A DNA stretch of 62,761 bases, the filler included, from Perkinsus olseni (taxonomy: Eukaryota), in NCBI GenBank assembly GCA_013115125.1. It is 6 parts of 6 records of this genome, joined end to end, with 100 filler letters (N's around TTAATTAATTAA, not from the genome) between each part and the next. Parts side by side here need not be neighbours in the genome. Positions count along the whole stretch, not along the records: positions 20,983 to 31,357 come from JABANN010000881.1; 5 more parts are not named here. The stretch is one strand, 5' to 3'. Shown here piece after piece: positions 10,396 to 52,401 of this stretch (the first letter of the stretch is position 1; each line of letters begins with the position of its first letter). Both the position numbers and the translations under genes were made by a program. The notes beneath the pieces were generated by a model. That model was not told the DNA's origin and ran no database searches. It worked only from the letters and a program-made list of their open reading frames with translations.

Positions 10396-10495
10396 NNNNN
10401 NNNNNNNNNNNNNNNNNNNNNNNNNNNNNNNNNNNNNNNTTAATTAATTAANNNNNNNNNNNNNNNNNNNNNNNNNNNNNNNNNNNNNNNNNNNN
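10396..10495. other. artificial contig linker
   Basis: N44-TTAATTAATTAA-N44 six-frame stop linker. Confidence 0.99.
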
Positions 10496-12149: not shown

Positions 12150-13168
12150 TCTTCAGTAGATGGTCCGTCACGGACTTTCATCGGTTTATGGCAGATATTC
12201 TGTTAAATTTGTCGCTTGCGATGTCATCGGATGATAGGGTACGCACGCACTCGTGGTGCCAAGGCCTCTTCGTGCCAAGGCCAACTTTTCACTTCTTAAT
12301 AGTTATCGGATTTATGAGACCTGGATTACTTTCAGTCACGGCGGTTTTGAGACTTCCAGGAATCATTTCTACCTTTTCATTGAAACCTCAGTGGGAATGC
12401 GTTCAGTCCGGGACTGTCCGACAGCAAGCGTGCTGTACTTATTTTGAAGCTCGCATGTCACATCCGGCACCCTGACTCCAAAGGAGTCTTTCAATTCGAG
12501 TCTGAAGCTTCTTCCATAAGAGCATATCACGACACGGCAGAGTGCTAGGGGGTTTGAGGAAAATGCCTCCGCCAGTGGTTGAGGAACGTGTGCAAATTTT
12601 CCCACACAATACTCAGTATTGTCATTGGTGACGGAGGAAGGGGTCGGGGGAGGTACCCCTCTATTCCCTTGCAAACTGCTTTCAACGCCTCGTATCCAGC
12701 AGCGGTCACTGACAGTGAGAATGACGTCAACTCAGAGTCGCAAGAGCGTCCAGTACTGATCTTGAATTTCCCCTGGTTTAATAAAGCAATTCTGAAAGCC
12801 AGAATCGATTCTGGAATTGATTTTAACGTGTAAAATGCGGTTCTAGAGTCGATTAAGAATCTCAATACTCTTTTATCGACGACCCTATTGACTCACATGA
12901 GAGACGCGTCTACAACACGAACTCGAAGCTGAACTTGAGTGAATCGAAGCCGAGTATACAGCAGAGTAGCATCCAATGAGGGATATATCCCACGTGGATT
13001 GCCTGCATGTCCCTCAAGTCATCGGAAGGTCCCCCGTTCGAATCCAACCCGGGTTGTTTTTCCGAAGGTTTCACAGCCACTTGCTCGTACAACCACCCTT
13101 TGTGCTTGCTAATGCCCCTACCTGGCCGAGCGAGCCGTCCATGCTTGAAAACAGCCAGTAGTGCTTGG

Positions 13169-13253
13169 GCCTCCGAAAATTAGTATAGCGACGGTCGTGA
13201 CAAGAGCGTGGCGAGCGCGAGAAAATCGGTCCCGGGTTCGAATCCCAGGAGGT
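13169..13253 (+). ncRNA. tRNA-like sequence with A/B-box-like motifs, non-canonical
   Basis: GCCTCC...TAGTATAGCGACGG...GGTCCCGGGTTCGAATCCC AGGAGGT; T-arm and end pairing present, no valid anticodon arm. Confidence 0.5.
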
Positions 13254-13777
13254 ACTCTTCAACATCACAAATTGTCTCCGCCGACTAAACCCCTTGCCAG
13301 CAGGGATTTGTGTTGGTGCAGTAGTTTGGAAGAGCTAGTGTGAATGACGTGGCACTGGTAGTGCAGCGGGAGTAGTCGATTGCAGTGGACACTCTTTCTC
13401 CGCTTTGACAATTTCCACCATTTTCGTCGCGTTCAGAGTAATACCTGGACGTATCTTAGGTCGATCATGGCATGTAACGATCGTGCTACCTACTTGCAGT
13501 TTATCAACCGAGTATCTTTCATAGTGAAGTCAGCGGAATATCCTTGTGTAAGGCTATCGCATGCCACCTGTTATTGTTGAGCTAGAATCTTTATTATTCA
13601 ACAGAGTTGTGTTCGTCCACTATTCTGATTCTTTATGCCACATTCTCGCCTGTAGTGTTAACTTTCGGGTTTTTTACATTTTCTATTGTTCAAAGTTTCT
13701 GGCACCTCTAGCTGTTCTTCAACCCAGTTTTCCACCATCGGTGTGCGTGACGGTGCTCTTTTCCTTTTTCTCCTTTC

Positions 13778-16700
13778 ATGTCGATCACCACCACTACGTC
13801 GTCGTTCGTCAACAACAACTCGTCCATCGACACGTTACAGACCCCTCTTCTGCAGCAACCCTGTAAGAACCCTGACTGTAAGTGCCGTAAGGAGTCCAAG
13901 GCCACCGGAAGTGCTGCGAGAAAGCGCTGTTTGAGTTGCTCTTGTGGAGGTAATATTGGGGCGCGTGACGCTGATCACTGTGTATCGGGGTATTGAGAAT
14001 CTTAGGTTGATCATGGTGTCCGTTGGTAGAATCTAGTATGATGTTCCTCTGTAGGATTCGCGCAATCTGCACGCATGCCCACGAGTGCATGCGTGCAATC
14101 GCACCAAATTCACCCTGTCACGCTCGAGTATCTTCTAACCCCTTCGGTGCGACGAGCGTCTCGCAGTTTGATTCTCACATTCATATTGTCATTCTCGGAG
14201 TCTTCAATCGTTTCATCACCGCCGGTCTTCCGGACCGACGAATTGGATCCTCTCTCAGACATGCAGGCGGGCGCTGTTATTGTGAAGGTCGGCGGAATGA
14301 CCTGTAGCTCCTGCGTGAGCACGGTCGAGAACGCTGTTAATGCCTTGCCATTCGTGGACTCGTGCAGTGTCAATTTGGTTACTACCAAGGCTGAAGTCAA
14401 AATTCATGCGGCTGCAGGTAATGGTATCTTTAGGTTGAGCGTGCAAGATACGAAATAACTCAAGGTGGAGTCACCATCTGTTGTTGCTTCAGTTGATTTA
14501 CAGCCCGGGTCGGAGCCTGTAGAGGAAATAGTAGACACCATAGAGAGTGTAGGGTTCGAAGCTGAAGTTGTTGGTATTACCAAATTCGAGGCTAAGGAGG
14601 CGACCGAGACCGCCGTGTTAAGTGTAGGCAACCATTCTTCCATAGCCTCTCTTCGACCTAAGATTCTCCTAGATATCTGGTATGTCCTGTGCATCCTGTG
14701 TAGCAAGCATAGAGCGCCTAGTAGGGAACATGGATGGTGTCAAGACTGTTGCCGTTGACCTCATCAAGGGTAATCATTCCCACTAGCTGGACCAATGCTA
14801 CCCTCCCTCTTCAGGCATGGCCTCGGTTACGTATATTATCGGTAAGTCCTCTGCTGATAAGGTATCGGAGGCGATAGAGAGCATCGGCTATGACGCTCGT
14901 GTGGAGCACATTGTGAAGGTAGTAGTGGTCGCACGTCAATGACCACCAAGGCGTTCATCATCCTCAGCCCGTTGCCAGTCCTAAAGGGTCTCCAGGGCAA
15001 GTCCCAGCGGAGCCCACCGTCTTGAGGGTCTGCCCAATCTCTCCAGCGGCTGGAGTTGAATTTGAAGATGCACGTAAAATTCTGAACAACACTCCCGGGG
15101 TTGTTGGCCTGTTCGAGTCGACCAGCGGCGACTCGGGCGTAGTACAAATTTCCTACGTACCCTCTCGCGAGCTCGGCGCCCGGGACATCTTGGCTGAGCT
15201 TGGTCCACAGTGGCGACTGGCTCCTCGGAACCCCTCCACAGGCTACCACATGGACCCTGTCTTGAAGCATCGTATACTGCTGGCTATCCCCCTGGCCATC
15301 ATCGTCGAGGTTCTCTCTATGTCCATGCTGGGCTCTTTATTAGGCTGCTGGTTGCCTGTTGTGCTTTTAGTAACGGCGTTCCCAGTGCAGTACTATTGTG
15401 GTTGGGGGTTCCACAAGCACGCCATCAGAGGCCTGGCCCACTGCAGCCTTTCGATGGACTTTCTGGTCTCCTTCGCGACCAACATGGCCTTCATTTATTC
15501 GGCTGTTTGGGTCTTCCTCAACCTTCCTGCGCTCATCAGTGGTCGAATGACCTCTCACAATACAGACTTCAATGACTGCATGTTCTTCGAGACCACCACC
15601 ATCCTGATCACGGTATTGTTGCTGGGTAAGGCGCTGGAATCCAGAGCGAAGGCTAGCACGGCCAGCGCCCTTGCTGAACTGTCCTCCCAGCGGCCGACGG
15701 ATGCCACCATAGTAGAGGAGGAGGACGGGTCACTACGGACCATTGATGTAGACTTGCTGCACATTGGCGACCGCGTGAAGGTCCTTCCGGGTGGCCATGT
15801 CCCTGCTGATGGTACTGTGGTGATGGCCGGTCTGAACACGGCATGTGATGAGAGTCTGTTGACTGGTGAGAGCAGGCCAGTGAAGAAGGGTGAGGGCGAC
15901 GAGGTCGTCGGCGGCTCGATCTGTGTGTCGGGTGGTATGGAGTTCACAGCCACTCGAGTGGGCTCTCAGACGGCCCTGGCGAGGATCCTTCAGCTGGTGG
16001 AAAGCGCCCAGGCGTCCAAGCCTGCGGTCCAGCGGGCGACGGACAAGGTGGCCGCGGTCTTCGTCCCCGCCATCCTGGCCTTCTGCGCCATTGTAGTTTG
16101 CGTGTGGGCCGTGGTGTCGGCTGTGAGTCCTCCCCAGAGAGCCGCTGATATGACTGATGCAGAGAAAGCCTTGCTTGTCTTCCGTTTCGCGCTGTCTATT
16201 CTGATGGTGGCCTGCCCCTGTGCCCTGGGTCTGGCCACTCCTACAGCGGTCGTTGTGGCGACGGGTGCAGCGGCTACACGCCTTGGCTGCCTGGTTAAGG
16301 ACGCCCAGGTCTTCGAGGTAGCCGGAAACCGCAAAAGGAAGATGGCTGTTGTACTGGATAAGACCGGGACCCTTACTGAAGGGAAACCAGGCGTTACCAA
16401 GACCATAGGCTTCCAAGACAGTCGGGCGAAGGCGATGCTGGCCGCGGCCGAGGCCAACTCAGAGCACCCAATAGCGACGGCCATCAGCGCTTGGGCGGCT
16501 CCGGCTGGAGTTGACTCGACCCTCACCGTCACAGGCTTCGAGAACATCCCTGGAGTTGGTGTGAAGTGTGACGTCGATGGTCATCATATTCGAGCCGGCG
16601 GCGACCTGTCCTGGGTGGTCGGCTCCGAGACCATGGCTAAGGGGATGATGGAGTATGTAGAGTGGATGCAGAGAGAGCGTGACGATGGTGCTGTGGTGGT

Positions 16701-18066
16701 GGCTGCTGCTGTTGATGGTGTGGTACAAGGATGCATAGCCCTGAAGGACAGGCTAAGGCCGGAGAGCGCTGATCTCGTTCATCAATTGAGGTGATCTTGG
16801 GTCCTGCAGCCATGCGTATTGTGCGTACGGTATAGCAGATCTTTCAAATTCTTGGTCTATGTCGTTTTCCCTCTCGCCTGCGTTTTTCCGGCTTCGTCCA
16901 GGCACGATCATCATCGCTGCTCAGATACGCCCTCGACCTGTCAGTCTGGATGTGTTCGGGAGACCACGAGGCCACCGCTAAGAAGGTTGCTGTCGACCTG
17001 GGGATCGAGAACGTGATAGGCCAGGCCAGACCCTCCGATAAGATGGCCCTCATCAGACGTCTCAAGCTCAACGGTAGTCTCAGCTTCGACTGCCTTCTCG
17101 CCATGCTCGTGTCTTAGGTAATACCGTTCTGATGGTGGGTGATGGTGTGAATGATGGCCCAGCACTGGCAGCAGCAGACGTTGGAGTGGCTGTTGGGTCG
17201 GGTGTGGACGTGTCAACTGATGCTTCTGATGTCGTCATACACAGTCTCAGAGGCCTAGCACCCTTCATAGTTTTGTCGAGGCAAACACTGAAGTAAGTCT
17301 CGGGAGGACAAGTTAGGACGGTTCGTCGCTCGTTGTTGCCCGGTATTGGTGTATGCCCCGTTGTTCCCTTTCGACACGCCAATCACTAAAACCAGTATTA
17401 TCTCAGCACATACTGCGTGCTTGTGTCTTTAACTTTAGTATGGTATGCATCGATGTGATTGTGGTTAGGTCCATTACTGATGTTAGCTGATAGGTACGTG
17501 CAGTAGTTTATACATGAATACTGTATAGAAAACTACATCTTCGTGAACAGTAGAGTCTTAATCCGAATTTGTTTGGAGTATAATGTGAGAAGTTGATTTC
17601 GCCTCAACTACTGAGAGTCTGAACCTGACTTATTAACCCGCTATTCGTCACGATGGTATTATAACATCCCTACACAAAATACCATTGGAATGAATACACC
17701 GTCCAAAGACTGTAACTAAATATCGAGCATACATAGCTGCCATGGCATCGTTGTATCGCCGGCTGTCCGCTGTTGGGCCGGCTCATCATCATCACAGTAG
17801 CTATTTTCAGGACCATCTGGCGCAACCTCTTCTGGGCCTTCATCTTCAACATCATCATGCTGCCCTTGGCAGCGGGCATCCTCTACCCGCCGACTGGCAT
17901 CACCCTACCTCCTGAAGTGGCGGGAGTGGCTATGGCCTGCAGCTCGCTGGTCGTCGTTACCAACTCGCTCAGTATTCAGTACTGGACTAAGTCGAGATAT
18001 GGTCATGATGAGGATCTTAGCAAGGCTATCCGAGAAGCGACTGGCAGGAAAGCCGGGAAGGAGTGA
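13778..18066 (+). CDS. P1B-type copper-transporting ATPase (ATP7/CopA-like), multi-exon
   Basis: HMA motifs GMTCSSC and [43 protein letters not shown]-terminal [15 protein letters not shown]. Confidence 0.95.
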
Positions 18067-18151
18067 TCATCTGAGTGACCCGGGTTCAATTCACGGCGGC
18101 GTCATTTTTTGATGAACGATATTATCTATATATTACCGTCTAGCATTGTTC

Positions 18152-20352
18152 ATGCCGTTCACGGCTGAACTGCAAACATTTGTTCAAGCTGTAAAGCAAA
18201 AGGCGACCTACAGTTTCGATACCGCTTCGATGTGGCGTTGTTCATGGTGCGTATCTTGAGGTCGATGTTGGCGCGAGACGAAATTCTGCAGCCGCTGACT
18301 GGTCATTCCGATGGCTAATTTTTTACTACACGCCCTCATTCTTGGGCCTCTAGTGAGATATCTTACTTCACCGGCCAGGACCTGGTCTCGGAGAACTGGT
18401 GAGCATCCACAGGGCTAGTCAGTCGCCGTCATTTACTGCTCAGGAATGGCGTTGGCAGTAGGCGTGCTGGCCTTGGTGGCGATGAACGAGATACAGCGAC
18501 CAGAGGAGAATTGTTATGAGCTGCTGGGCTTGGACCCTGCCGTGTCGATCACCAGTAGGTTAACCGTGTATTCCCGCGAGAGGTCTCATGAGTGCATGAT
18601 ACTCTACTACGTATATTTTCAATAAAGCGATTCATTCTCCGACCTAAGGTCCTAGTTTCTTACCGGACGTTTCTCTAATTCGAAATCATATACAACTTCG
18701 TATCAGAAGCAGCTGGCGTGATCGTCGCGCTTCGCTCGCCTAATGTGTATAAATGTCTTTGTATTTTAGAGGGGGACATGTCGAGAGCATATCGCCAGGC
18801 CTCGCTGCAGTACCATCCAGATCGCAATCCGACTCCGGAGGGCGAGGTGAGGTACTCGGGTCTCTCGTTTCTCGTCATCGTCTCTTCAGATTATGTTTAT
18901 GAAGATAGCGCAGTGCCAGGAGTTGCTCTCGGATCCGCAAAGGAGGAGAATTTATGACAGATTCGGAGCGGTCTCGAACGAGCAAATGGCAGCGGTAGTA
19001 TTCTAAGCTGGGTGCTTATTACTTCGGGACCGCGGTCGATTTACCGTCTCGGGCGACCAGGGCCTGTTGGTCTCAGATGGATGAAAACGTCTACACTATG
19101 TTGGCTTCGGTGTCGATGATAAAGTATTTCGTGGAGTTCATTCTGGGTATCCTCTTTACGGCCACATCGGACCTCACGGCGGCTCGCTACTGGATAACGC
19201 TCTATCTTGTCTTCACGTTCTCTTGTGAGGTCCTCATGAAGTTCATAGGTAGGTCAGTTGCCCTTTGAGGAGTGATCTGGGGAAGGAGTGGTACGATATT
19301 ACCGCAGGTTTTGGTGGTATGTTCTCGTTTGTGCCAGTGTTGGGGAGCTTCAGGACCTTCGAGAAGGTCGAGGCACTAAAAGACTTATTTCCGGTGAGCA
19401 TCGTCTTCCTGCCTCGCGCTGTATTGTATAAGTTTCGCTAAGCCAACCTTCAATCATGGCGGAAAGAAAGTGCGTGCTGACTTCTAAGCAGCATTATTTC
19501 AGGCGATCTTGTCTGGGAGCATCTTACTATCAAGAGCGCTGTATGTGGACAGGAAGCGAGAGGTGCAGTACGTACTAGCTCATGTAGTCAAGTCCACCAA
19601 CGACATGGCCACCTATGTGAAAGCTCGAGGTCGGGCCTTCACAGCCACTCCGCTGGTCGTAGTGTCCGCAATAGGTGACAACCCTGGAGTTGGAGAGAAA
19701 GCCTCGGTCCCTGATGCCGCTGCTGTGGGAATGATGAGAGGTCAGGGTGTGACGATCGATGCTATGTTGGAGCCATCAACAGGCCAACAATCTAAGTCGA
19801 AAGGTAGACAGATTCAGCTAGCCTTGCATCACCTTCGTCTGCTGTGGGTCCTCCTCGTTGTGGCGTCGTCATCTTCATGAAAGTGTGCAATATTCACTTG
19901 TGATAAGTATAAGACCATCAGTGTGATAGATTATAGTATATATTACATACCATAACATACGAAGCATGCTCATACATAAATTATTGTATCGAAATCAAAA
20001 ATCATTTTATGACACACCCACTTTTACCAACCTGCTTGCAGACTAATTTCTGAGGCTAAACGGACCTTCGGCGATGGCGGACATTATGAGAGGGCCAGCT
20101 CTTTTTTTAGATACTCAGCCATTCTTGGACCACACTGTCCCTGCTGGGGAGGACGAGAAGAAGAAATCTACCTCCCGCGAGCAGCAGCAGCAGCCGGCAG
20201 CTCAACCCGTGGCCCGACCTGTCGAGCCTCCGAGCACTTTTCAGAGGATACTCAACTTCATTTTCTGGCTGTATGTTGTTAACCAAGTCGTCATTCTGAT
20301 GAAGGGTTTGTTGACTACAGCAGGAGCACCATCGGAGACCGGAACAATATGA
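18152..20352 (+). CDS. DnaJ-domain membrane protein, multi-exon
   Basis: Exons encode ENCYELLGL and AYRQASLQYHPDRN (HPD), followed by hydrophobic segments; 5' end uncertain. Confidence 0.7.
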
Positions 20353-20882
20353 CTCCGTTTCCCTTCGGAGATACTCTCGTTGCGTTTCGACAAGTCTTCG
20401 TCACGGGACAAGTCTCTCCCCCTGAGTGGAAGCGCCGGTCTTGGTCTGATGGATTGGCCTTCGTAGCTCGGTCTTGCAAACTCTCTCATTTACGCTGTTC
20501 GTGAAATCTCTGTTCGCGGACAGGCTTACCTCACCTGTCGATGCGACAGTGAAGTGAACGCTGATGAAACCCTGATGCTGGCGTAGTGATACTTAGCGTA
20601 ATGAATACTGTGAACAATGACACAAAGGGTTGTCCCTTGTAAGATACACCGCCTTAAGATACGCGCTAAGCTGAGGGGCCCGATTTGAGGATCGTGCTGA
20701 ATAGTCGTTCGTTCATTTAATGTAACTTCGGTAGTATATAGGTTGTTGGATTGTGTAGACCTGACGCCACTTTGCTTGTTGCAGTTCAATTTTTATTAAT
20801 TTTGGCCTTTTCGCTCATACCGTCGTTACTATGAGTACTTCTACTGATACCAACGCTATTGCTTCTCTATTGGAGGCCGCCT

Positions 20883-20982
20883 NNNNNNNNNNNNNNNNNN
20901 NNNNNNNNNNNNNNNNNNNNNNNNNNTTAATTAATTAANNNNNNNNNNNNNNNNNNNNNNNNNNNNNNNNNNNNNNNNNNNN
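20883..20982. other. artificial contig linker
   Basis: N44-TTAATTAATTAA-N44. Confidence 0.99.
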
Positions 20983-21389
20983 TGCCCAGGCTCGCTGATG
21001 TGTCGCTTGCGCGACAGTTTATGGTTTTTGGCAAACCCGGCGCCTTACCACCAAGCAACTGCTTTCGACGAGCACTATTGCTCACGTATACTCACGCTTT
21101 CTGATACTACACGTATCAATCCAAATTACATTTGGATTGATAATCCATGATCGAACTTCGATCCTATGTACAGGCTCGGCACGACAGGGAGGAGATAAAT
21201 AGTCAAGTAGAGGCGGCAGTGCGCCAAGGCGAAAATTTTTTAGGCAAGTCGCGGAGCGGCTCCGCTATGAGTTTTTCGTGTACGAGTCTTCGATGTACGG
21301 GTATTTGGTGTACGAGTCGAAGGTGTACGAGTATTCGAGACATGAGTCGAGAATGTACGAGTTTTCGGTGTACGAGTCGTGGACATCCC
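20983..21389. mobile_element. end of non-autonomous TIR element, family B copy 1; other end not in contig
   Basis: TGTACGAG ladder ending tgtacgagtcgtggacatccc; 21160-21389 is an inverted, diverged copy of 24794-24970. Confidence 0.75.
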
Positions 21390-22690
21390 CTTCAAACACC
21401 CGGGTGTGAGTGCCATGAAGGACCTCGTTGAGCAGTTCTGCACATTCAAGAAGATTTCCCGCGAAGTGAAGAGGTTTGTCCGTTCCTGTGATGTCTGTGC
21501 GGTTGCTAAGACTGGCAAAAAGCTGAACAAGGCGATAAGTTCACCACGGTGCCGGGTTAAGCTTGATGGGGAATCATAGGGTTGGATCTGTACGGGCCCT
21601 TGCCTACAGTGGAGAAGTCTTGGGCCTTGATTGGTTGCGACTATATCACCAAGCTGGTTTCGGTCAAGATCGTTGATAATCCTTCTGGGTCAGCAGTATC
21701 GACAGTCTTATCGAAATGATAGGCGCTGAAGGCATACCGAAGGTTGTAGTATCCAATCGAGGAGGACGCTTTACCTCGGCGACATTCAAGCAGACCCTAT
21801 CACGCTACAACGTCGTTCAAGCCCTTTATCATGCGAAATACCCAGCTCAAAGGGGTTGGTTAGAACGAGGCCATAACGAGTTCGGCGCCATCTTGAAGGC
21901 GTCTACAGTCGGAGACGGTGCAACACGGCCATGGTCTCTTGATGACGCCAGTCTGTGGATCAGTATGGCTGCATTTACAATGACTTGTCTGCCATACTCA
22001 GACGCGGACGATAAAGCACTCTGCCCTTGATTATGCTGCCGAGCCTCCGCTAACATGGTCGACAATGTTCTCGGCACGGATGAGGAGGCTGTTTCCCAAG
22101 CCAGGGCTTGGCTGGGAAGTGGTTTACTATTCGACCATCTGACCTCTGACATCGCCCAGATCCGTGATACTTGTTCAGAAGAGTGGGGCCAGTCCTTGAA
22201 GGGCCTACAAGACCTATGGCAAAAACGCCGAGTACAAGTCCGCCGTCGCTTAGCTGGTAGCCGTCGCCTCAAGAACGAGCACTTGAAGGCCGGTGACGTG
22301 GTGTGGAAGAAGAACTACAACGTTGACAAGTTCGGCAACCTCTTCACCGGATCATTTACAGTGACAGCAACTGAGGGCGTGACGATCTCGATAGGCGACA
22401 AGGGTGGGCAGACGTCGGTGTGCGGTATCCATCAACTCAAACGAGGCGGAGCCAAGATCAAGATCGCTCGAGAAGGAGTGGACATTATCAAGAAGGCCGC
22501 TAGTGCCCAAACAGAGACTGAGCTTACCAGACCGGCATTAGATGAGTCCGATCTTCGCCAATGGAGATATGCAGTGATGAATGAAGAAGCTATGACTCGC
22601 AGCAAGGAGAGCTCTGGAGAAGATGGACGACGTCATCAACACCAACGGCAACAAGGAGCCCAAGGTCCGGAGACGTTAACCTCACGATGA
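21390..22690 (+). pseudogene. Ty3/gypsy integrase remnant with frameshifts and a stop
   Basis: HPGVSAM..VRSCDVC zinc finger, GLDLYGPLP, GIPKVVVSNRGGRFTS, QRGWLER and LKAGDVVWKK split over several frames. Confidence 0.85.
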
Positions 22691-22844
22691 TTCTCGGCGA
22701 CTAAGAGGCTACGGCTCTAGCAGTAGCCTGAGGGAGTGTGCCGAGAACCGAACTTTTTTACTAAGCAGCTCACGAGAGCGCCTCTGTGCATGCGTGCAGA
22801 GAATTGTGTTACACAATTTGTGTATGAGTTGAGTATCCTTAGCG

Positions 22845-23128
22845 GGGTGAGTATCATATCGTACAGTGTCAACTGGTACAGGTCTCAGCTGGTGCGCAGC
22901 TAAAGTGGTACAAGAATAATCCGTACAACCGACTTTTATCTTGTGACTGGTTGACACTGTGAGATTCGACACTGTACAGAATGATACTGTACTGAGTGCA
23001 ACAAGCCGAAATGACAATGTACAAAGCGAAACTGTACGACTGGAAACTGTATGAGGTGGAACTGTACGAATTTGTGTTACACGAGCAGAGTTTCTTCGAG
23101 TTGCAACTGTACGATATGATCCTCACCG
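22845..23128. mobile_element. 284-bp MITE, family A copy 1, with 8-bp TSD
   Basis: Termini GGGTGAGTATCATATCGTACAG / CTGTACGATATGATCCTCACCG; CCTTAGCG at 22837-22844 and 23129-23136. Confidence 0.92.
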
Positions 23129-23632
23129 CCTTAGCGTGGCGCTAGTGGTACCACAGCATCACTTAGACCTTTGATTATTGACTCTCAATTATCCTTTTTG
23201 TGTTGCGCAATTTCGGCACAGCTGGGTGCACGCTCCCCACATCGACGCAGAATGCGAGCTGAGAGGCGTCAGTGAAGACATTGAGGGTCTCCAAGCTGAA
23301 GGGCGTTCCAAGTAGTCTGGGAAAATGTCGGCGAGAATGAACCGACTCGGGGCACCTCCTTCCATGGAAGGAGACAGCGGGTCGTAGTAGCGGTTGATCG
23401 GAGAGACTGCTTGGCGTCGGCTGATACGGGATGGAACAGACTCGGGTAGGGGGTCAGGATAACGATAGCATACCGTGGCCACATCGTTGTCGGTCGGAGT
23501 AGCCCAGAGCTCCTCTCTAGTAACTACAGAGGAGCTCTGGGCAACTACAGTGTAGTTGCCGGCCGGCGAAGGGCGCGCCTTGTTGAAGGACTTCTCTTCA
23601 GTCGCCATGTCATGTAGTCGTGCTGGCAGATG

Positions 23633-24584
23633 CGGGGAACCTCCATTCATACATCGCTGTTTCATACATTGTAGGTTTCGTCCACGATTGTTTTGTCCAT
23701 GGTAGGGTTCAGCCTGCTTGTTTCGTCCATGTTACTTCTGTCCATCCTCTTTCATACACACCTCTTCCGTGCACGGGTCTTACGTACATGGTTCTTTCAT
23801 CCACGCCGTTTCATCCAATCATGCTCTAACTCCGCTTCCTTCGTCCAGGGCCTTTCGTACAAGCCTTTCGTACACATCAGTTTCGTCCACGCTACTTTGA
23901 CATATGTGACGCCGCGGCGTCACATATGTCTAAAAGTAGCGCGCTGGCGGCTCCACCAGTGCCACCCATGCCGTCTGCCCCTACCCAGATTTGAACCTGG
24001 GACCATCGTCATTCAAGCCGGGAGCTCTACCAATTCCGCTATTACCATCACCTACTACGATCTAAGAATCTCACCGCCGCCTCTCCTGGTGAGTCACCAG
24101 TGGTGACGATCTAGCACCCCCACATCAGGTTGTCTCTGTGGTGATCCCAGTGCCTAGAGGCTACAAACATGAATGGAGCCAAGTTGAATAGGTTGGGTAT
24201 CGCATGGGCGGTACTTTGTCGGAATTCAGTAGTCTTACAGGTGAGTAGGTTAGCAGCTCAAGCTCGTATTCCCGAAATCGTGGGTTCATTTCCTCCGATG
24301 AACATTTGCGTGTCGTCAGTTTCATATTTACGAACCACTATCGGACGAATGAATTTTTTTCGAAAAGATCGTGGTTGAATAGATCAAAATGAGCATATCT
24401 TTGGATTAACCGCCCATGGACGAAATAATCGTGTACGAAACCGGTTATGGATGAAAAAATCGTGACCGAAACATACACCTTTTCGATGTACGAAAAGATC
24501 ATGAATGAACCAAAATTTGTACGAAACAATCTTGGATCGAAGCTGCAGTGGACCAGTCGATCATGGACGAATCGCGGTACACCC
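23633..24584. mobile_element. 952-bp non-autonomous TIR element, family C, with 8-bp TSD
   Basis: GGCAGATG at 23625-23632 and 24585-24592; imperfect termini CGGGGAACCTCCATTCATACA / GGGTGTACCGCGATTCGTCCA(rc); inverted TTCGTMCA ladders at both ends. Confidence 0.85.
23976..24048 (-). ncRNA. tRNA-derived sequence inside element C
   Basis: rc ATGGTAA TAGCGGAATTGGTAGAGC ... GGTCCCAGGTTCAAATCTGGG; A and B boxes at tRNA spacing, acceptor and anticodon stems unpaired. Confidence 0.6.
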
Positions 24585-24793
24585 GGCAGATGACCTCGAC
24601 GAAAGTCTGACCTCGTATACAGTAGTCGCCGATGTAGACAATGATATCCGACTCCTTGGGGACGGTCGGGCCAGCAGCAGACCCCTTACCGGGCAGAATA
24701 CTCGCAGTTATAGATGGTCGGGACAAGGAGCCATCGGTCAGGGGTGGAGAAGGACTTGGGGCCGAGAGCTTGTGGAACGTCAACGGGTTGAGC

Positions 24794-25718
24794 GGGATGT
24801 TCACGACTCGTACACTGTCATTTCATACACACACCCACTTTCAACTCGTACACCGTCATTTCGTACACCCTGCGAAAATTTTTTATGCAACTTGCCTAAA
24901 AAATTTTCGCGCTCTGCCACCTCTAATTGACTATTTATCTGCTCTTTGCAGTGCCGGGCCGGTACATGGGCTATGTACCGTAGCATCGTTCTCATGTGAT
25001 GCTATGTAACATAGCATCGAATCCGCGACCTTTGAATTCGTTACCCCTCAACCTCCATACCATTTACACTACTGAATGTCCTCACAATGTACTCACAGAG
25101 TGGCGCAAACAATTCGCTCTCTATAGACAATACGAGCGGAGCCCGTCGCTTTGCTCCGGAGTCGCTTCGCTCCAATGGCGGCACTCTCAGCAGAAATGTT
25201 GTGCAGTTAGGCGTAAGTGCAAGAAAGTGTGAATTTTTCACGCGCGATGTAGTGAATGAATAGAGTTCGTGTGAGAGATGAAGGCAGAGAATGTGAATAT
25301 ACCGGCATGAATGAGGAAGCTGTGGAGTTGATTGAGACGCATGTCAAAGACGGGAAGAAATAGAATCAGAATTGTGACAAACTTGACAAATGTGAGTATT
25401 TCACGCACGATTATGGCCGCGTAGCATATGGGTATTAATTACTTCCTTCGCTCCGCCATTGCTTTCAGCGCGCGGCCCAGAAATGCGACTCAAGCAGCGT
25501 AGTGTACGAGTCGTGCTCGTGTACGCGTTGACGATGTACGAGTTTTATGTGTATGGGTTTTACGTGTATGAGCTTTATATGTTCGAGTATTATGTGTACG
25601 AGTTTCAAGTGTACGAAACGACGGTGTACGGATCCAAGGGGTGAACGAGCATTCAGCGTACGAGTCGTGTATGAAATGAAAGTGTACCAGTTTTCGGTGT
25701 ACGAGTCGTGATACACTT
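24794..25718. mobile_element. approx. 925-bp non-autonomous TIR element, family B copy 2
   Basis: Inverted termini TCACGACTCGTACAC / GTGTACGAGTCGTGA; 15-bp ladder 25502-25710; no TSD seen. Confidence 0.8.
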
Positions 25719-26831
25719 GTGTCGGGAAACCTCTAGTAGAAATTTTCCGACACACCAGTCGACTTCTTACCAATAATAGAACCACGGAGAGCCGCCAACA
25801 TCGAACACTACGGGCCACAATGTGGCCGCCACATGGTCCTTGGCGCCGCATACGAAGCAGCCCGCACTAAACTTCTTATATGGACAGTCCTTCAACCAAT
25901 GCTCACCACCACATAAAAGGCACTTCTTAGGAAGCGTTACGGCCGCGAGCCTTCTCTCTCGCTGGTCAAACAGCTTCTCTAGCGAACCGACCAAAGCTTG
26001 GACCACACTAGAAGGAGGCCCCAGACCATCATCACTACCCATAGTAGCGTCTGCTTGCGATGCGGCTGCAGGCCGACTGGGCTGGGAGGGCGGGCTAAAT
26101 TTTTCCTTGTAAACCTCAAGCTCGACGCGGAAGTACTGGCTTGGCCGCATCCGGAGAGTTGGCGATCAACCTATCCATAACCATCTGGTCCATGGTATCG
26201 GCACTGAGATTTTTATCACTGGGTGAGGACTTGTTATAGTGGTTCATACAACGGTGAAGAGAAGTCAAGAAACGCCACCAAACGAGTAATACGATCCCAA
26301 GTCATACCGTTAAATTTAGCGAGAATCTCATCGGGCCGAACCGGGGAGAGCATTGCCAAAAACGATAAACGATCCGCCTTAAAGTCCTTCTTAGTACAGT
26401 GTTGATGCCACACATCGAAATAGACGTCACAGAGATGATTACCAAGACGCTCAGCCATTCGAGGATCAGTCCAACCCGACCCACGAGCATCGGCTTCATA
26501 GCGACGTAGCCAATCCTCGAAGTTAGTAACACCATCGTAACGCTCAGGCATAGGCGTCTGCATTACTTGAATCACTGTAGAACCAGCGGGACCAGACGAC
26601 GAAAGGAAAGTAGGACGGGTCGAAGAATCAGCGGAACCTCAGAATCAGAATCAGAATCATAACCGGCCTCTCTAAAGGCCCTCACTACCTCGTTGTGAGC
26701 TACGGCACTAGGTCGGGCCGTATCGCGAGCCACACCGGCCACTTCACCAGAGGCTCCTACCCTCTTATACTGGTCGAAGGTGGCTCGCAACTTCATCCAC
26801 ATTCTTCTCAATCGTAGGAAAGTCACCAGAT

Positions 26832-27645
26832 CGGTGAGGATCATATCGTACAGTTGCAACTCGTAGCAACTCTGCTCGTGTACCACAAATTCGTACAGTT
26901 TCACCTCGTACAGTGCCAAATCGTACAGTTTCACCTAATACAGTGTTAAACCGTACACCCTACTCTCGTACTCCCACGATCTCGTACAACCCCGCCAATT
27001 TTTTAGAAAATTAGAAAATTGGCCGAGCGCGCTTAGCGCGCGCGCCACTGCCCCTGCCGCGTCCACCGTCGACATCGGACAACCAATTTTGGAGCACCCG
27101 CGAATTGAACCTGGGAATACCGCTTGCCAGCAGGCCCCCCGTCCGCGCGAACACTTTCCCTCACCGAAACTCTCGTTTCCGCCAGCGAGATTCACAGCTC
27201 AGTAAATGGCAGCAGCGCTCCGCCTGATGGGAATAATTTTTCATTCCGCATTTCAAGAAAATGTGTACGCATCGTGTCTAGTCATTTTCCCTAAAGTTAC
27301 TTCGCATTGTACATGTAGAATTTACTAAACAACACTGTATCCGTTGCAACTGTACTGAAGGAGACTGTACGTGCAGCAAGTGCACTGAACGACACAGTAC
27401 CTGCAGCAACTGTACGGTTCAACACTGTACGAAATGACCCTGTACTGACTGCAACAAGATGAACTGACACTGCACCATAAGACACAAAATGAGTTGCAAC
27501 TGAACCAGTTGACACTGTACGAGTTGCAACTGTACCATATGTCAGAAGATGAAAGTCGGTTGTACGGATTATTAATGTACCACTTCTCAGCTGCGCACCA
27601 GCTGAGACCTGTACCAGTCGACACTGTACGATATGATACTCACCC
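26832..27645. mobile_element. 814-bp TIR element, family A copy 2, opposite orientation to copy 1
   Basis: Termini CGGTGAGGATCATATCGTACAG / CTGTACGATATGATACTCACCC; about 90 bp at each end match 22845-23128; no TSD seen. Confidence 0.88.
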
Positions 27646-28100
27646 GGCTGCCAATGGAAGCTAGAACTGTCGTGTTCAGTCGCGTGGTTGATGTGACGGT
27701 CACTCAAGGATTAATATCACGTCACGACCTAAAACGGATAAGCCTCATGTTTCGGTGATTTAATTGGATAGCCACGGAAGAGCAGACGGGGACAGAGTCT
27801 AGTAGACTCAGTCTATGCTACTACGTGATGTGCGTGCGGGACATGGCGTCACCGCGGGCCCTGGGCTTACACGCGTACAAGGCTAAGCTATAGCAGCTTA
27901 GTTATGACACCTCCACCCTCAGAAACACATGCACCGATTTAAGGTAAAGGAGGTAAGGGCAGCAGCAGGCCGCTAGCTCGATTGGCAAGCGAATACTTCT
28001 TGCCTCTAAACAGCCGGCACACAGGTTGTACACGCGCAATGCACAAGAAATCGATCAAAATTGCGCAAAGGCAGTCGCAGGTTCGAAGGTGAACCGCAAA

Positions 28101-28230
28101 AATCTAAGGAGAGTGTAAGTTTTCTAAGGAGGTCTGCATTTTCCAAGGAAGCCGGAAAAATCTAAGGAGAATGTGAAGAATTCTGAGGAGGTCTGCAAAG
28201 TCTAAGGAAGGCTGCGTCACACCTAAGGGA
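28101..28230 (+). repeat. approx. 20-bp-period tandem motif CTAAGGA, about 7 copies
   Basis: tctaaggag, tctaaggag, tccaaggaa, tctaaggag, tctgaggag, tctaaggaa, cctaaggga. Confidence 0.75.
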
Positions 28231-28567
28231 GTAGTCGTGCACGCCCAAACTAACCACACGCACATATGCACACTGCACTTCTACACACTGCTCATATGAT
28301 ATGAGTAATATTAAATTAGTTAGCACATATTGAGCAATTCGGGGCCGAGTCATCAGCGGCTGCCATGTCGTCTTCGTAGGGGTGATTTCCAAGAAATGGC
28401 GCCACCGGTGATTTACCATTTGAGGGCGGAGGGAGATGGCCTAAAGAGCTGAAGTCTCGACTCCAAACACTCTTCGACACCCGCCTGCAGGAGGCTTACA
28501 CGAGCAAAAGCACGGAGACGGGAGTATACAAGGTCTACAAGTGTTGCAGCCACACCGAATGCCCTTT

Positions 28568-28658
28568 CCGGGTAGGCTGTTATCCGGGTAAGAGCTTATA
28601 GCCGGGTTAACGCTGTTATCCGGGTGAGAGCTGATATCCGGGTTAAGGCTGTTATCCA
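28568..28658 (+). repeat. approx. 18-bp tandem repeat, 5 copies (CCGGGT..GCTGTTAT)
   Basis: Direct inspection; two alternating unit variants. Confidence 0.8.
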
Positions 28659-28927
28659 AGGCCTCAGAGAAAAAACCCCAATAGCAAGGCAAGACCATAA
28701 CCTCCGTGAACCCGAAACCCGACTCAGGTCGCCCTCCGGGCGACGATCACCCAAAACCGGAAGGGGGGGCAGTGTGAGAGCTGAGAGGTTTCCTTAGGAA
28801 AAAAAATGAAATTCCCTGAGGAAGTGCCGAATCTCCCTGAAGTAGGATGCGCTGTGTTGTGTGTTGCAGTTATTGAGATTTGGTTAGTGGTCAAGTTAGT
28901 CTTCTTTAACGTGAGTGCTGTAGTGTC

Positions 28928-29782
28928 ATGTCCGCCATTAAGCTTGAACAAGTTCTTAAAAGGTATAACGGTGCCACTTCCGAAGAGGAGGGGGACACGT
29001 TTCAGCACTGGCTCACCAAGTTTGAGCTGGTAGGTGGTATTCAGGATTGGAACGAGGAGAAGCAGCGCGAGTATGTGCCCTTGTTTTTCGAGGGACCTGC
29101 CTGGGACGTTTATGAGTCTCTTCCTGCCGCTACTACTGCTACTAAAGGAGCTCTGGTTACGGCGATGGAAGCTGCGTTTAGCCCTACTAAATCGGATGCG
29201 TGGGTTCAGTTCCAAGCTCGCGATTTCAGGGAAGGTGAAGGAGTCGACTCCTACTTGAGTGAGTTGAGGAGACTATTACGGTTGTCAGGGACTGATCCTT
29301 CCACTGCCCCTAGCGTCCTGGCGGAACGTTTTGTCGCTGGTCTGCCCTCTTCCGCTGCCGAACAGATTCGTCTGCTTGCGGCTCCAGAAGGTGAGCTTGA
29401 CTTGTCTGAAGCCGTGTTGCGTGCACGAACTTTGCTTCCTCAGAATATGCATTCTGCTACTGTGGTTGCTGGTACTAACTCTCGCCACGCTGGCCATTCC
29501 TACGATCGTTCACGAAAGGATAATAGGAATCGGTCTCAGGGTTCGAGATCGTCAAAGGTGATATGCTATAAATGTGGTCGACCCGGGAATATTCGTCGGA
29601 ATTGTCCTTTGTCAAGGCATTCTGCTTCTGGTAATGTTCCTCGTGATGAAGCTCCCTCTACTCCCTTTACTGCTGCTATTAGCACCTCTCAAGGTGATGC
29701 TCCTGTTCAGTCTACTGAGTCGGGAAACGGTCAGGGACTCCCGCGTGCTCAGGGGTGCGAGAGTCCGTCAGATGTACTATAG
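28928..29782 (+). CDS. Ty3/gypsy-like Gag
   Basis: YNG..FQHWLTKFE, F.AR....GEGVDSYLSELRRL, CYKCGRPGNIRRNC knuckle (His replaced by Asn). Confidence 0.88.
   Translation: MSAIKLEQVLKRYNGATSEEEGDTFQHWLTKFELVGGIQDWNEEKQREYVPLFFEGPAWDVYESLPAATTATKGALVTAMEAAFSPTKSDAWVQFQARDFREGEGVDSYLSELRRLLRLSGTDPSTAPSVLAERFVAGLPSSAAEQIRLLAAPEGELDLSEAVLRARTLLPQNMHSATVVAGTNSRHAGHSYDRSRKDNRNRSQGSRSSKVICYKCGRPGNIRRNCPLSRHSASGNVPRDEAPSTPFTAAISTSQGDAPVQSTESGNGQGLPRAQGCESPSDVL
29722..29766 (+). promoter_or_regulatory. -1 programmed ribosomal frameshift signal
   Basis: G GGA AAC in gag frame, 6-nt spacer, stem GGACTC-C-CGCG...TGCG-A-GAGTCC; -1 frame open into pol. Confidence 0.8.
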
Positions 29783-31357
29783 GTGCTTCAGGCCCCATTA
29801 GTCATAGTAAATCCCCTCGTGTTTATGTTCAAGTCCAGTCGAAGCTGAAGTGTGTGTCTGTATTAGACACTGGAAGCGCTGTTAGTCTGGTCTCATCTGA
29901 GACGGTGAGTAGACTAGGTTTATCAGGGTCAGTTCAACGACATGCTACTGGTGATTGTAGGTTATGTACTGTTGATGGGACTTCTTTACGGTGTTTCGGT
30001 GAAGTATCACTGAAGGTTCAGCGCGATAGTGATTCGGTTCGACTTGGTGATTTCACATGGAATTTCCATGTAGTAAGTTCATTGGAGGCTCTTAAATGTC
30101 AGCTCCTAATCGGTGCTGATATTATCTCAGAGTGCTTCCATGGTATTCAGTTGTATTACTCTGGTGGCCGGTTATCTGGCGTTGTGGCAGCTCATGTTTC
30201 TACCACCACTAATGTGAGTAATGGTTCGGCTGTTGCTGGTGCGGAGCAGGAAAAACGCCCCGCAGGTGCACTTCTTAGTGTATTGTCGTCTTCTTTTGAG
30301 GCGTCATCGACGGTACGGTTATCTCGTCATGTAGCTGTCCAGGAGGAGTTTTCAGGAACTACTGAAGCTTCTGGTAAGAACGATTTGAGGAGCGTCAAAT
30401 TGTCTATGCAAGATTTTGATACTTGGTGGTCTAAGTCCGATGGATACTGGACTTTCAGGTGGCATTGGAAGGATGACCAGCCACCTCTGAACCCTATTTA
30501 CTCTCGGTTAGCCAAGTATCCGGTGAAGTTGACTGCGCAGCAGGAGCAGCAATATGACCAAGAACTGTCATCATGGATCTCAAGCGGTTGGCTTATACCG
30601 TACGATGAAAAGAAGTTCGGTCCGGTCAAGGTAGAATTGCCTTTTCTGCCAGTGGTTCAAGCCCATAAAAGCTCATCCCCGTTACGGGCTTGTGTCGATG
30701 CTCGCCGATTGAATGACCTGGTCATCAACACGCCTGGTTATTCTACTATATCTTGCCCTGATAAATTGCGGCAATGGCGGCTTCGATGTAGTCAAAATCA
30801 TGAAGGTGCTTTGGTCGACCTTCGCAAAGCGTACCTTCAGGTGCGCTTGGACCCTTCTTTATATCCTCATCAAGTGGTGCGATATCGAGGCTCCCGGTAT
30901 GTTCTATCTCGCATGTGTTTTGGACTTTGCACATCGCCTCGGGTGCTTACTTGCATTGTTGCATATATATTACAACGTTCGGGACTGCCCGTCTCTCTTG
31001 CAGATTCCTATGTGGATGATATATATGTGGCAGATAAGGCTCTGGTACCCAAGGTTGTAGAGCAATTCCGGCTATTCGGACTGCCCTGTAAGGAGCCTGA
31101 ACCTCTTGGTGCTGGAGCTCGAGTCTTAGGCCTTGAGCTCGTTGATGACCATGGTGACTTATGTTGGACTCGCCGGCCTGATGTAGATCTGTCTCTTCCC
31201 TCCCCGCTTACGAAACGTTCTCTGTTTCAGTGGTGTGGAAGGTTGACCAGCCATTATCCTATATGTGACTGGCTAAGGCCGGCCACTTCCTATTTGAAGC
31301 GCATCTGCTGTGAAGGCCTTGGTTCTAATGCTGCTTGGGATCGTCCGGTTTTACCTG
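29728..31357 (+). CDS. Pol (aspartic protease plus reverse transcriptase), truncated at contig end
   Basis: VLDTGSAVS protease; DLRKAYLQV, RMCFGL..SP, YVDD RT motifs. Confidence 0.92.
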
Positions 31358-31457
31358 NNNNNNNNNNNNNNNNNNNNNNNNNNNNNNNNNNNNNNNNNNN
31401 NTTAATTAATTAANNNNNNNNNNNNNNNNNNNNNNNNNNNNNNNNNNNNNNNNNNNN
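31358..31457. other. artificial contig linker
   Basis: N44-TTAATTAATTAA-N44. Confidence 0.99.
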
Positions 31458-52301: not shown

Positions 52302-52401
52302 NNNNNNNNNNNNNNNNNNNNNNNNNNNNNNNNNNNNNNNNNNNNTTAATTAATTAANNNNNNNNNNNNNNNNNNNNNNNNNNNNNNNNNNNNNNNNNNN
52401 N
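52302..52401. other. artificial contig linker
   Basis: N44-TTAATTAATTAA-N44. Confidence 0.99.

Follow-up and report, generated by a model that had tools for sequence, protein, structure and literature searches.

Do the small cut-and-paste transposons of Perkinsus olseni carry working RNA polymerase III (Pol III) promoters, or fragments of host tRNA genes that were swept along with them? The question is raised by a window of 62,761 nucleotides (filler included), in which six unlinked 10.4-kb pieces of the genome of this organism are concatenated. The initial annotation had proposed that tRNA-like cassettes with their TFIIIC-binding boxes were repeatedly retained in class II elements here, either to express a small RNA or to insulate against silencing. 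We found this to hold in part: the quoted motifs are present, and the one in element C is the only convincing tRNA relic among them; likewise, in TIR elements here tRNA-like sequence is indeed a family trait and not a private insertion, whereas its repeated retention is not borne out.

All the elements concerned lie in the third piece, which starts at 20983 and holds A1, A2, B1, B2 and C. Element C (23633..24584) is a 952-bp non-autonomous TIR element with the ends CGGGGAACC... and ...GGTACACCC, an exact 8-bp direct repeat (GGCAGATG at 23625-23632 and 24585-24592) as its target duplication, and a core of about 400 bp between inverted arrays of short subterminal repeats of the TTTCGTCCA type. 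In family A, A1 (22845..23128) is a complete short copy of 284 bp, with the TIR GGGTGAGTATCATATCGTACAG / CGGTGAGGATCATATCGTACAG and an 8-bp duplication, CCTTAGCG, at 22837-22844 and 23129-23136; it has neither a core nor a tRNA-like piece. A2 (26832..27645) is a long copy of 814 bp, inverted relative to A1, with 15-nt subterminal repeats having a GTACAG/GTACGA core and no target duplication, its flanking 8-mers being different (CACCAGAT on the left versus GGCTGCCA on the right). These two had been taken for the arms of a single transposon; one large element reaching from A1 to A2 is ruled out, as A1 is enclosed by a duplication of its own and the outer flanks differ, and they are two separate copies. 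The family B copy B2 (24794..25717) is about 920 bp long. Its left end reads GGGATGTTCACGAC..., its right end is degenerate, 15-nt repeats of the GTGTACGAG type form inverted arrays in it, and no target duplication is seen at its ends. Because A2 and B2 are without target duplications, their ends are less certain. B1 (21163..21390), near the start of the piece, is a partial family B copy in inverted orientation relative to B2, which it matches solely over 21163-21252 and the repeat array (local alignment score 93, z 32). The ends of the elements read GGGTGAG, CGGTGAG, CGGGGAA and GGGTGTA, and the arrays are of 15/30 nt.

The DNA around them is of a different kind. A Pfam search of the third piece gave an Integrase_H2C2 match at 21346-21576 (E 7.9e-9) and, at 29755-31357, matches to RT (E 0.0011) and to a protease (E 0.0049) that are weak and under the Pfam cut-offs. 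Between B2 and A2 lie decayed Gag-like reading frames (25767..26638, minus strand), the zinc-knuckle matches of which are weak and below Pfam's cut-offs (E 0.077 and above); this stretch is retrotransposon DNA that received insertions of the small elements. One ORF in the window has 84% identity to a P. chesapeaki protein. Domain and ORF searches recovered no transposase from the third piece, and no autonomous partner of the elements lies within the window.

The argument turns on the core of C. On its minus strand, 23976..24041 holds a tRNA gene relic in canonical register, from nt 8 (T8, at 24041) to nt 73 (A73, at 23976). A motif search places the A box, TAGCGGAATTGG, at 24030-24041 and the B box, GGTTCAAATC, at 23988-23997, both on the minus strand; the tRNA-like spacing that had been claimed for them is exact, as is the register from nt 8 to nt 65. 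The anticodon-loop position, CTTGAAT, falls in register at 24011-24017 on the same strand, and of the 18 positions of the D arm (nt 8-25), 15 agree with the tRNA-Ala gene of the window. That gene, tRNA-Ala(AGC) at 7286-7360, is the sole call in the window by ARAGORN at default settings and by Rfam RF00005 at gathering score. The relic is called by neither and does not look like a functional tRNA gene in its stems, which are largely unpaired: in register, the acceptor stem has one Watson-Crick and two G-U pairs of seven, the anticodon stem one of five, the D stem two of four and the T stem four of five. Its MFE is no better than that of shuffles (z +1.46; 188 of 200 fold at least as well). None of the tRNA-like pieces considered here is a tRNA.

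Could the resemblance then be fortuitous, with short GC-rich motifs happening to look like tRNA boxes? The tRNA covariance model, a check that had been suggested along with the original claim, gives no match at E<=10 over 12000-29000 or over 23940-24100, and the motifs had been chosen after they were seen. Alignment to the window's tRNA-Ala and relaxed ARAGORN searches, which we rejected as support, count against a tRNA origin: in the former C ties for the top score of 26 while shuffle maxima average 27.9, and in the latter the hits to C (at -ps90) and A2 (at -ps80) are noise (3 hits at -ps90 and 45 at -ps80, versus means of 0.77 and 38 in 30 shuffles). The box pair of B2, moreover, is found only by the loosest pattern, with four matches, a number that 26 of 300 shuffles reach. 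Set against this, the strict A-box...B-box pattern occurs once in the window, in C with its exact register, while no more than 4 of 300 dinucleotide shuffles contain it, and a 17-nt T-arm pattern with up to three mismatches has five matches versus 0.34 expected (0/100 shuffles), two of the five having defined the pattern.

The family form of C argues further against chance. Copy number was read as a depth ratio in public contigs of the same organism (run X1), with a single-copy reference of 75-97 from four zero-difference contigs over unique parts of the same stretch (run X1). Several public contigs have loose ends at 23633, the left boundary of C, and past 24636 the depth is that of single-copy sequence. 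A 386-nt contig over 23914-24299, tRNA relic included, has a depth of 744.9 (run X1), and the core together with the relic stands at about 8-10 times the single-copy depth in these contigs. The copy in the window differs from this high-depth contig at 6 of 386 nt, three of the six falling in or beside the 66-nt relic. The high-depth form has G at nt 57 (23992), which makes the B box GGTTCGAATC, and C at nt 36 (24013), which makes the anticodon TGC; both changes go towards the tRNA consensus. The restoration of G57 and C36 suggests that the founder was more tRNA-like and that the window copy has decayed. The boxes are thus present in the majority form of C, whereas their absence from the family form had been named as refuting the initial reading, and are more canonical there; with A TAGCGGAATTGG and B GGTTCGAATC, they are close to the A and B box consensus. 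Taken together, we regard chance as very improbable and, as judged from the sequence, a host-type (tRNA) origin of the C relic as likely.

It is a separate matter whether the boxes were kept by selection, as a Pol III promoter for a small RNA or as a TFIIIC boundary shielding the element from silencing. In favor of such a role, the majority form of C combines near-consensus boxes at tRNA spacing with decayed surrounding stems. A and B boxes that match the consensus at the approximately 30-60 nt spacing of type-2 promoters were found in C only. Downstream on the minus strand, 34 nt from the relic, lies a near-perfect palindrome (23889..23942) with a fold of -40.7 kcal/mol (z -9.05), as stable as which none of 200 shuffles was; its Rfam match is to a hairpin-type miRNA model only. 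Past the relic, a T4 run is first met at 23932-23935 (minus strand), in the 5' arm of this palindrome and 41 nt beyond nt 73; it is possibly a Pol III stop. With this run, the boxes could serve for TFIIIC binding or for a Pol III transcript some 120 nt long, and Pol III or TFIIIC use is accordingly a possibility for C only. Run X10, the RNA label of which is only a guess, has a depth of 0-3.3 over the bins of the C core and 0 over 27050-27191, values that have no bearing on expression. Metagenome scans with a 30-nt pattern of the C relic and with the family A TIR pattern gave 0 matches each.

On the other side, the window copy has lost G57, and the clustering of three of its six differences in or beside the relic does not suggest constraint. 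With only 6 differences in 386 nt, the copies have diverged too little to reveal selection on the boxes relative to their flanks. The other two elements also speak against a retained function, both boxes being found in only one of the three. In A2, the minus-strand motif that had been reported is indeed there, as a 26-mer (27090-27115) in the core that resembles a T-arm and 3' acceptor piece and includes the B-box-like GGTTCAATTC (27102-27111); its surroundings hold no A box, D arm or anticodon arm. It has the exact 11-mer CCCAGGTTCAA in common with the C relic, as had been noted; with up to one mismatch this 11-mer has four matches in the window versus 0.84 expected, a count reached by 2 of 100 shuffles. 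A contig over the A2 core (27037-27292), 26-mer included, has a depth of 355 (run X1), or about 4-5 times single-copy. We rejected the A2 piece as a primer binding site of an LTR-retrotransposon, and likewise as having been copied from a mature tRNA with its CCA tail: its final CCA is in register with nt 71-73 of the gene (compare the 3' end of the window's tRNA-Ala), so that no added CCA is implied. Family A also exists, with a target duplication, without any core, as A1 shows.

The weaker T-arm-like piece reported for B2 is likewise present, at about 25013-25029 on the minus strand, where it lies together with an A-like TAGTGTAAATGG (25060-25071, minus) inside a 122-bp segment (24968..25089, minus) with ATGTAC on both sides. 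This segment is not part of the family form: other B copies in the public contigs skip it (joints 24967->25090 and 24940->25092), local alignment finds no match to it in B1, and the contig that carries it (24861-25119) has a depth of 97.1 with 0 differences, which is single-copy; B2 thereby fails the refutation test set in the initial annotation. The cores themselves are not homologous. When those of C, A2 and B2 were aligned locally in pairs, the scores did not exceed those of shuffles, and a common ancestry was rejected; the best match, the 15-nt T-arm of C versus A2, scores 25, equal to the shuffle maximum. Since the cores are without mutual similarity, there is no conserved cassette. What does recur in all three, on one strand, is a layout of a tRNA-like piece, 35-110 nt, and a palindrome with a T4-T6 run, which would speak for functional boxes. 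On balance we hold selection for Pol III or TFIIIC use, itself proposed from sequence features, to be unlikely.

Did the pieces instead enter the founder copies as nested SINEs or tRNA retro-pseudogenes? The 122-bp segment of B2, between its ATGTAC copies and skipped elsewhere, could be such a unit, and in C the 8-mer CACCAGTG (plus strand) at 23954-23961 and 24095-24102 flanks 133 bp that include the relic. However, the B2 case is equally well explained by microhomology deletion in the other copies, and a shared 8-mer has by our own rough estimate a chance of about 0.06, with three elements tried. The relic is not at the 5' end of the 133-bp unit, and, in agreement with the initial annotation, which had seen no SINE-like tails, no A-rich or simple-repeat tail follows any of the tRNA-like pieces. 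The summed depth of the relic bin (941) versus the rest of the core (826; run X1) was judged to be no higher, so the relic is probably not part of a commoner family at 80% likeness or more. A nested origin is in our estimation quite improbable.

Box-like motifs also occur beyond these elements. GGTTCRANNC is found 12 times in the window versus 3.9 expected, an approximately threefold enrichment that 0 of 100 shuffles reach and that would favor functional boxes. Some of the B-box-like motifs are in coding sequence (14553, 30654). T runs follow 3 of 12 B-box-like motifs elsewhere (8421, 18083, 37171), which is about chance by rough estimate. T-arm-like motifs are present outside the TIR elements at 13028, 13228 and 18076, a further point against the initial reading. 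Two further motifs had been placed in a hAT-like region at 13028 and 13169. The first stands; the second is at 13228-13245, and 13169 is roughly where the second unit begins. These plus-strand look-alikes (13028-13045 and 13228-13245) are 200 bp apart and identical at 16 of 18 positions, and the second has a perfect B box, GGTTCGAATCC. They lie between the hAT-like ORF (10515-12149), a candidate known from an Atlas lead only, and a copper-ATPase gene, and were not placed within any transposon; no GTACGA-type repeats follow this ORF. The region does not belong to the same setting as the elements, as it is in the second piece, which is unlinked to the third.

The second piece does bear on another explanation, namely that a Dada transposon had interrupted a tRNA gene, of which the C relic is the right part, the junction having later been carried into the C core. 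In P. marinus, Dada transposons insert at nt 8-13 of tRNA genes, and the duplications described for them there read TAGCTC or TAGTCT (PMC3706591; PMC8869645). The tRNA likeness of C begins exactly at nt 8 (TAGC...), with nt 1-7 unpaired with nt 66-72; like starts are seen in B2 (TAGTGT) and in the unit of the second piece (TAGCGA at 13187), where the distance from TAGCGA to GGTCCC is 41 nt, the same as in C. Yet the anticodon and D stems of C are decayed too, and the missing acceptor stem may be simple decay; furthermore, C, B2 and the second piece show no obvious likeness ahead of nt 8. We consider a Dada split improbable, to much the same degree as a nested insertion.

We favor, with somewhat better than even confidence, the view that the pieces are captured and decaying fragments of host tRNA genes, carried passively in small non-coding TIR elements. 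The stretch would be a pile-up of separate short cut-and-paste elements, C, B2 and A2, with A1 and B1 nearby, that probably inserted into decayed LTR-retrotransposon DNA. Each appears to consist of short TIRs starting with (C/G)GG, inverted subterminal arrays of about 15-nt repeats, which are probable transposase binding sites, and a family-specific filler core, and to leave an 8-bp target duplication wherever the ends are intact. Movement would have been in trans, presumably by a hAT-type or Mutator/Foldback-type enzyme, the transposase being absent from the window. The tRNA gene relics may have joined the filler through capture during repair or through an old insertion in a founder copy, to be copied together with the element thereafter. 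In C this would be nt 8-73 of a tRNA gene, which the majority form shows in register as alanine-UGC; in the long A subfamily it would amount to a T-arm and 3' acceptor piece at most, and the B2 piece would be private to one copy. The lack of relationship among the three cores is what filler DNA would lead one to expect. For P. marinus, tRNA genes in the hundreds, with 349 copies of tRNA-Leu-CTT as an example, are reported along with Dada (PMC3706591; PMC8869645), and tRNA debris beside mobile DNA is hence to be expected in this lineage. Two observations sit uneasily with passive filler: the piece-spacer-palindrome layout of all three cores, which pure filler does not predict, and the intact boxes in the majority form of C.

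We deem it rather improbable that the MITE-like transposons of Perkinsus carry working tRNA-derived Pol III modules, with the C core giving an RNA of about 120 nt that ends at the T run of the palindrome or acting as a TFIIIC boundary. In that case, the hitch-hiking of tRNA-derived units on cut-and-paste elements would be one route to the numerous tRNA-type sequences entangled with mobile DNA in Perkinsus. Were the boxes to work, a class II transposon would have borrowed the promoter logic of SINEs, and would supply further TFIIIC sites to an alveolate parasite with little-studied Pol III biology. Unless backed by conservation across the family or by expression, box-like motifs alone do not establish function. 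For annotation, the locus adds three previously unnamed families of TIR elements with 8-bp duplications, one of which preserves a tRNA gene relic in its core. Among titles and abstract openings in the literature, we found nothing on tRNA-like cassettes in TIR transposons or on Perkinsus MITEs.

Several known systems offer points of comparison. First, the elements resemble MITE-like and Pack forms of the hAT, Mutator and Foldback types in their short TIRs, subterminal inverted arrays and 8-bp duplications, and in being non-coding, with family-specific filler that can hold host gene fragments. As in hAT elements, an 8-bp duplication is found in A1 and C, though it is not seen in A2 and B2; the hAT terminal motif is YARNG, whereas the TIRs here start with (C/G)GG. 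Pack-MULE and Pack-TYPE elements are the gene-fragment-carrying forms of such elements (for example PMC8903248); they carry protein-coding DNA, while the cargo here would be a tRNA gene relic. Second, tRNA-derived SINEs share with C a decayed, multi-copy tRNA-like module in which A and B boxes are kept while the stems erode. Here, in contrast, the module has no tail and is not at the 5' end of its unit, and it spreads in a TIR element with 8-bp duplications, being by contig depth apparently no commoner than its host core. Third, ETC sites and tDNA boundary elements, on which the insulator idea of the initial annotation draws, are comparable in that B-box-like sequences stand alone there, at a distance from functional tRNA genes (for example PMC3395662); the motifs here differ in being degenerate and at times in coding sequence. 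Finally, Dada elements (Kojima & Jurka 2013, PMC3706591; Kojima 2022, PMC8869645) are DNA transposons of this genus that are physically linked with tRNA genes, with a junction at nt 8-13 in the A box, which is where the likeness of C begins. Dada, however, sits between two tRNA halves, while here it is the element that encloses the tRNA piece; the duplications described for Dada are 6-7 bp of tRNA sequence, while those here are 8 bp (CCTTAGCG, GGCAGATG) and not tRNA sequence; and the elements here have TIRs, of which none were found in the Dada-U6 families as these are described (PMC3706591; PMC8869645). A TIR element that bears a tRNA gene relic in its core is in keeping with the picture of Perkinsus drawn in PMC3706591, and takes it further: that of a genome where the entanglement of tRNA genes with DNA transposons is unusual.

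The window's 62,761 bases are made up of six ~10.39-kb pieces separated by linkers of the form N44-TTAATTAATTAA-N44 (10396-10495, 20883-20982, 31358-31457, 41833-41932 and 52302-52401); because the pieces have been joined in this manner, features on different ones cannot be assumed to be neighbors. The five short TIR elements considered here, C, A1, A2, B1 and B2, all lie within the third piece (20983-31357). The 'hAT-like region' that the initial annotation had grouped with them belongs to the second piece, and its linkage to the third is not established. The host DNA of the elements is decayed LTR-retrotransposon sequence. It includes a zinc-binding domain of an integrase (21346-21576; E 7.9e-9) and, on the minus strand at 25767-26638, Gag-like frames whose zinc-knuckle matches are weak and sub-threshold. 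From 28928 onwards there are gag-pol-like frames, in which the zinc-knuckle, protease and RT matches are again weak and under the Pfam cut-offs (E 0.001-0.009). Upstream of the latter, a 59-bp tandem repeat in two copies (28094-28210; 83% matches) may be part of an LTR. The fifth piece (41933-52301) is AT-richer than the others (GC 0.38-0.44 vs ~0.50) and, unlike them, carries many long trinucleotide runs (TTG, CTT, ATC). A perfect 31-bp tandem repeat at 52165-52319 extends into the assembly gap and produces a false, near-threshold ARAGORN 'tRNA-Leu' at 52104-52184.

Comparison of the window against itself, together with a reading of the element ends, resolves three families with a common design of (C/G)GG ends, subterminal repeats 15 or 30 nt long in inverted arrays, and a core; GGGTGAG...ATCGTACAG is an example of the TIRs. 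What had been treated as a single 'element A' comprises two separate copies: A1 (22845-23128; 284 bp), which is complete, bounded by TIRs of 22 nt with CCTTAGCG as its exact 8-bp duplication, and A2 (26832-27645; 814 bp), which is longer, inverted relative to A1, has a core of ~400 bp and shows no matching flanks at its ends. C (23633-24584) has the exact 8-bp duplication GGCAGATG on both sides, and the third family is represented by B2 (24794 to ~25717) and a partial copy, B1 (21163-21390). Coding capacity is absent from all three families, and the window holds no partner element with a transposase. The combination of 8-bp duplications and subterminal repeat arrays is what we take to indicate a transposase of the hAT or Mutator/Foldback type. 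A 544-aa ORF of the second piece (10515-12149) is truncated at the edge of the piece and matches nothing in Pfam up to E 10. Its nearest clusters in a protein atlas are hAT-dimerisation / FAM200-ZBED5 (scores 0.90-0.93); it may be the C-terminal part of a divergent hAT-type transposase.

The motifs reported in the initial annotation as Pol III promoter boxes are all present in the window, and those in C form part of a longer tRNA-like register. On the minus strand, from TAGC at 24041 to 23976, the sequence fits the canonical tRNA numbering without gaps: an A box (24030-24041, nt 8-19) is followed by GGTAGAGC as the 3' side of the D arm, CTTGAAT as a 7-nt loop (nt 32-38), a 5-nt variable loop and the B box GGTTCAAATC (23988-23997, nt 52-61). 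Across nt 8-25, the D-arm stretch, 15 of 18 positions are identical to the tRNA-Ala(AGC) of the window, and the strict A-box...B-box pattern has its one match in the window at C, having been seen in 4/300 dinucleotide shuffles. That tRNA-Ala is the sole call by ARAGORN at default settings and by Rfam at its gathering threshold; the Rfam tRNA model has no match at E<=10 over 12000-29000 or over 23940-24100 alone. The acceptor and anticodon stems of the C piece are unpaired, and it folds no better than shuffles (188/200 at least as stable). Relaxing ARAGORN brings up matches at C (with -ps90) and at A2 (with -ps80), which do not rise above shuffle level (means of 0.77 and 38 over 30 shuffles). 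Since detectors, stems and fold all speak against a working tRNA, C carries no tRNA but a stretch resembling a decayed tRNA gene. The tRNA-Ala(AGC) itself (7287-7359), the only detectable tRNA of the window, scores just 39.3 bits, with an A at nt 54, a T loop ATCGATG and no T4 run within 40 nt downstream.

Whether such pieces belong to the families was examined with contigs of four public runs from the same organism, compared with 23500-27750 at 80% likeness; the contig sets containing the stretch hold ~42-45 million letters under a single organism label. Only contig-to-contig depth ratios were used, summed depths not being copy numbers. In one run, X1, four zero-difference contigs on unique parts set the single-copy reference (75.4, 97.1, 82 and 78.5). 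There, a 386-nt contig of the C core that includes the relic (23914-24299; 6 differing letters) has a depth of 744.9, ~8-10x single-copy, and a contig of the A2 core (27037-27292; 8 differing letters), which connects to the A-type array over a 71-nt skip (26965->27037), has 355.4, ~4-5x. The cores of C and the long A subfamily are thus multi-copy, and their tRNA-like piece travels with the element, bearing out its proposed status as a family feature for these two. Both differences that the high-depth C contig shows inside the relic bring it nearer to the tRNA consensus: T>C at 23992 creates GGTTCGAATC, and T>G at 24013 places TGC (alanine) at the anticodon position. A second run, X7, has the same two letters in 482.3/531.3 and 684.1/702 of depth. 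The founder of C was hence more tRNA-like than the window copy. The claim does not extend to B2: its contig with the box piece (24861-25119) is at single-copy depth in X1 (97.1, 0 differences), other B copies jump 24967->25090 (depth 277 in X1, 117 in a third run, X3) or 24940->25092 (154 and 48, respectively), and B1 shows no similarity to the box segment. The box of B2 thus falls to the refuting condition that the initial annotation itself had set.

A2 has a 26-mer (27090-27115, minus) in which a T-arm look-alike is followed by GTGCTCCA, equivalent to nt 66-73 in the tRNA register; an A box is absent. Its 'CCA' is ruled out as a sign of a processed tRNA, as the tRNA-Ala of the window itself ends GTTCTCCA. 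In B2 the T-arm-like piece is weak, the A-like TAGTGTAAATGG sits 4 nt beyond the canonical spacing, and the box pair fits only a loose pattern, the observed count of which was reached by 26/300 shuffles. Aligned locally in pairs, the cores of C, A2 and B2 yield nothing above shuffles, the best match being the 15-nt T-arm of C and A2 (score 25, the maximum of 200 shuffles). What the three share is minus-strand order: a tRNA-like piece, 35-110 nt, and a palindrome with a T4-T6 run. The near-perfect palindrome of C (23889-23942) has ~25 pairs in its predicted fold (-40.7 kcal/mol, z -9, 0/200 shuffles as stable), and analogous AT-run palindromes are at 24873-24912 in B2 and 26995-27048 in A2. This layout is the chief point in favor of something more than passive cargo. 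The boxes and T4 run of C could yet allow TFIIIC to bind or Pol III to make a ~120-nt transcript. Even so, we regard a selected Pol III/TFIIIC function, for which the pieces had been proposed to be retained, as improbable.

T-arm-like motifs also occur outside the elements. A 17-nt T-arm pattern, defined from two of its own five matches, is found with <=3 mismatches at 13028, 13228, 18076, 23988 and 27102 (0.34 expected), and GGTTCRANNC has 12 occurrences where 3.9 are expected. At 18076-18112 a T-arm look-alike, CCCGGGTTCAATTCACGG, and a T6 run directly follow an in-frame TGA, which from our reading of the frame we take to end that of the copper-ATPase; this second-piece ORF has 84% identity to a Perkinsus chesapeaki protein, the following matches being at ~42% or lower, which points to a Perkinsus-like alveolate as the source. 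The three occurrences of the 14-mer CCCNGGTTCAATTC (18079 +, 27102 -, 55469 +) lie in contexts unrelated to one another. A unit at 13170-13262, upstream of the ATPase gene, combines TAGCGA at 13187 with a perfect B box, GGTTCGAATCC, at 13235; its TAGCG-to-GGTCCC distance of 41 nt equals that in C, and its flanks AGTATAG / AGGTACT allow 5/7 acceptor pairs. This unit, too, may be a tRNA gene in decay.

We lean, with some reserve, towards the tRNA-like pieces being passive cargo: fragments of host tRNA genes would have entered founder elements and been copied passively thereafter, with an unseen transposase binding the subterminal repeats and moving the elements in trans. The remaining weight is shared by a nested SINE-like insertion, chance likeness and an origin from tRNA genes split by Dada, the DNA transposons that insert into tRNA genes of Perkinsus marinus.

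In titles and abstracts of the literature searched, we found no description of tRNA-like modules within TIR transposons; well established, on the other hand, are the uptake of host sequence by non-autonomous DNA transposons and, in Perkinsus, an association of DNA transposons with tRNA genes. Kojima & Jurka (PMC3706591) report that P. marinus has tRNA genes in very large numbers (349 tRNA-Leu-CTT, 116 tRNA-Gly-GGA, 46 tRNA-Ile-ATT, 23 tRNA-Tyr and 9 tRNA-Ile-ATA) and five Dada families that target tRNA genes, duplicating A-box sequence such as TAGCTC; Kojima 2022 (PMC8869645) places the duplications at nt 8-13. The tRNA likeness starts at nt 8 in C, B2 and the second-piece unit (at 13187), which is notable given that placement and offers a possible lead on the origin of the relics. 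By definition the elements described here fall outside Dada: they end in TIRs, their 8-bp duplications are of non-tRNA sequence, and they contain the tRNA piece internally instead of being flanked by it.
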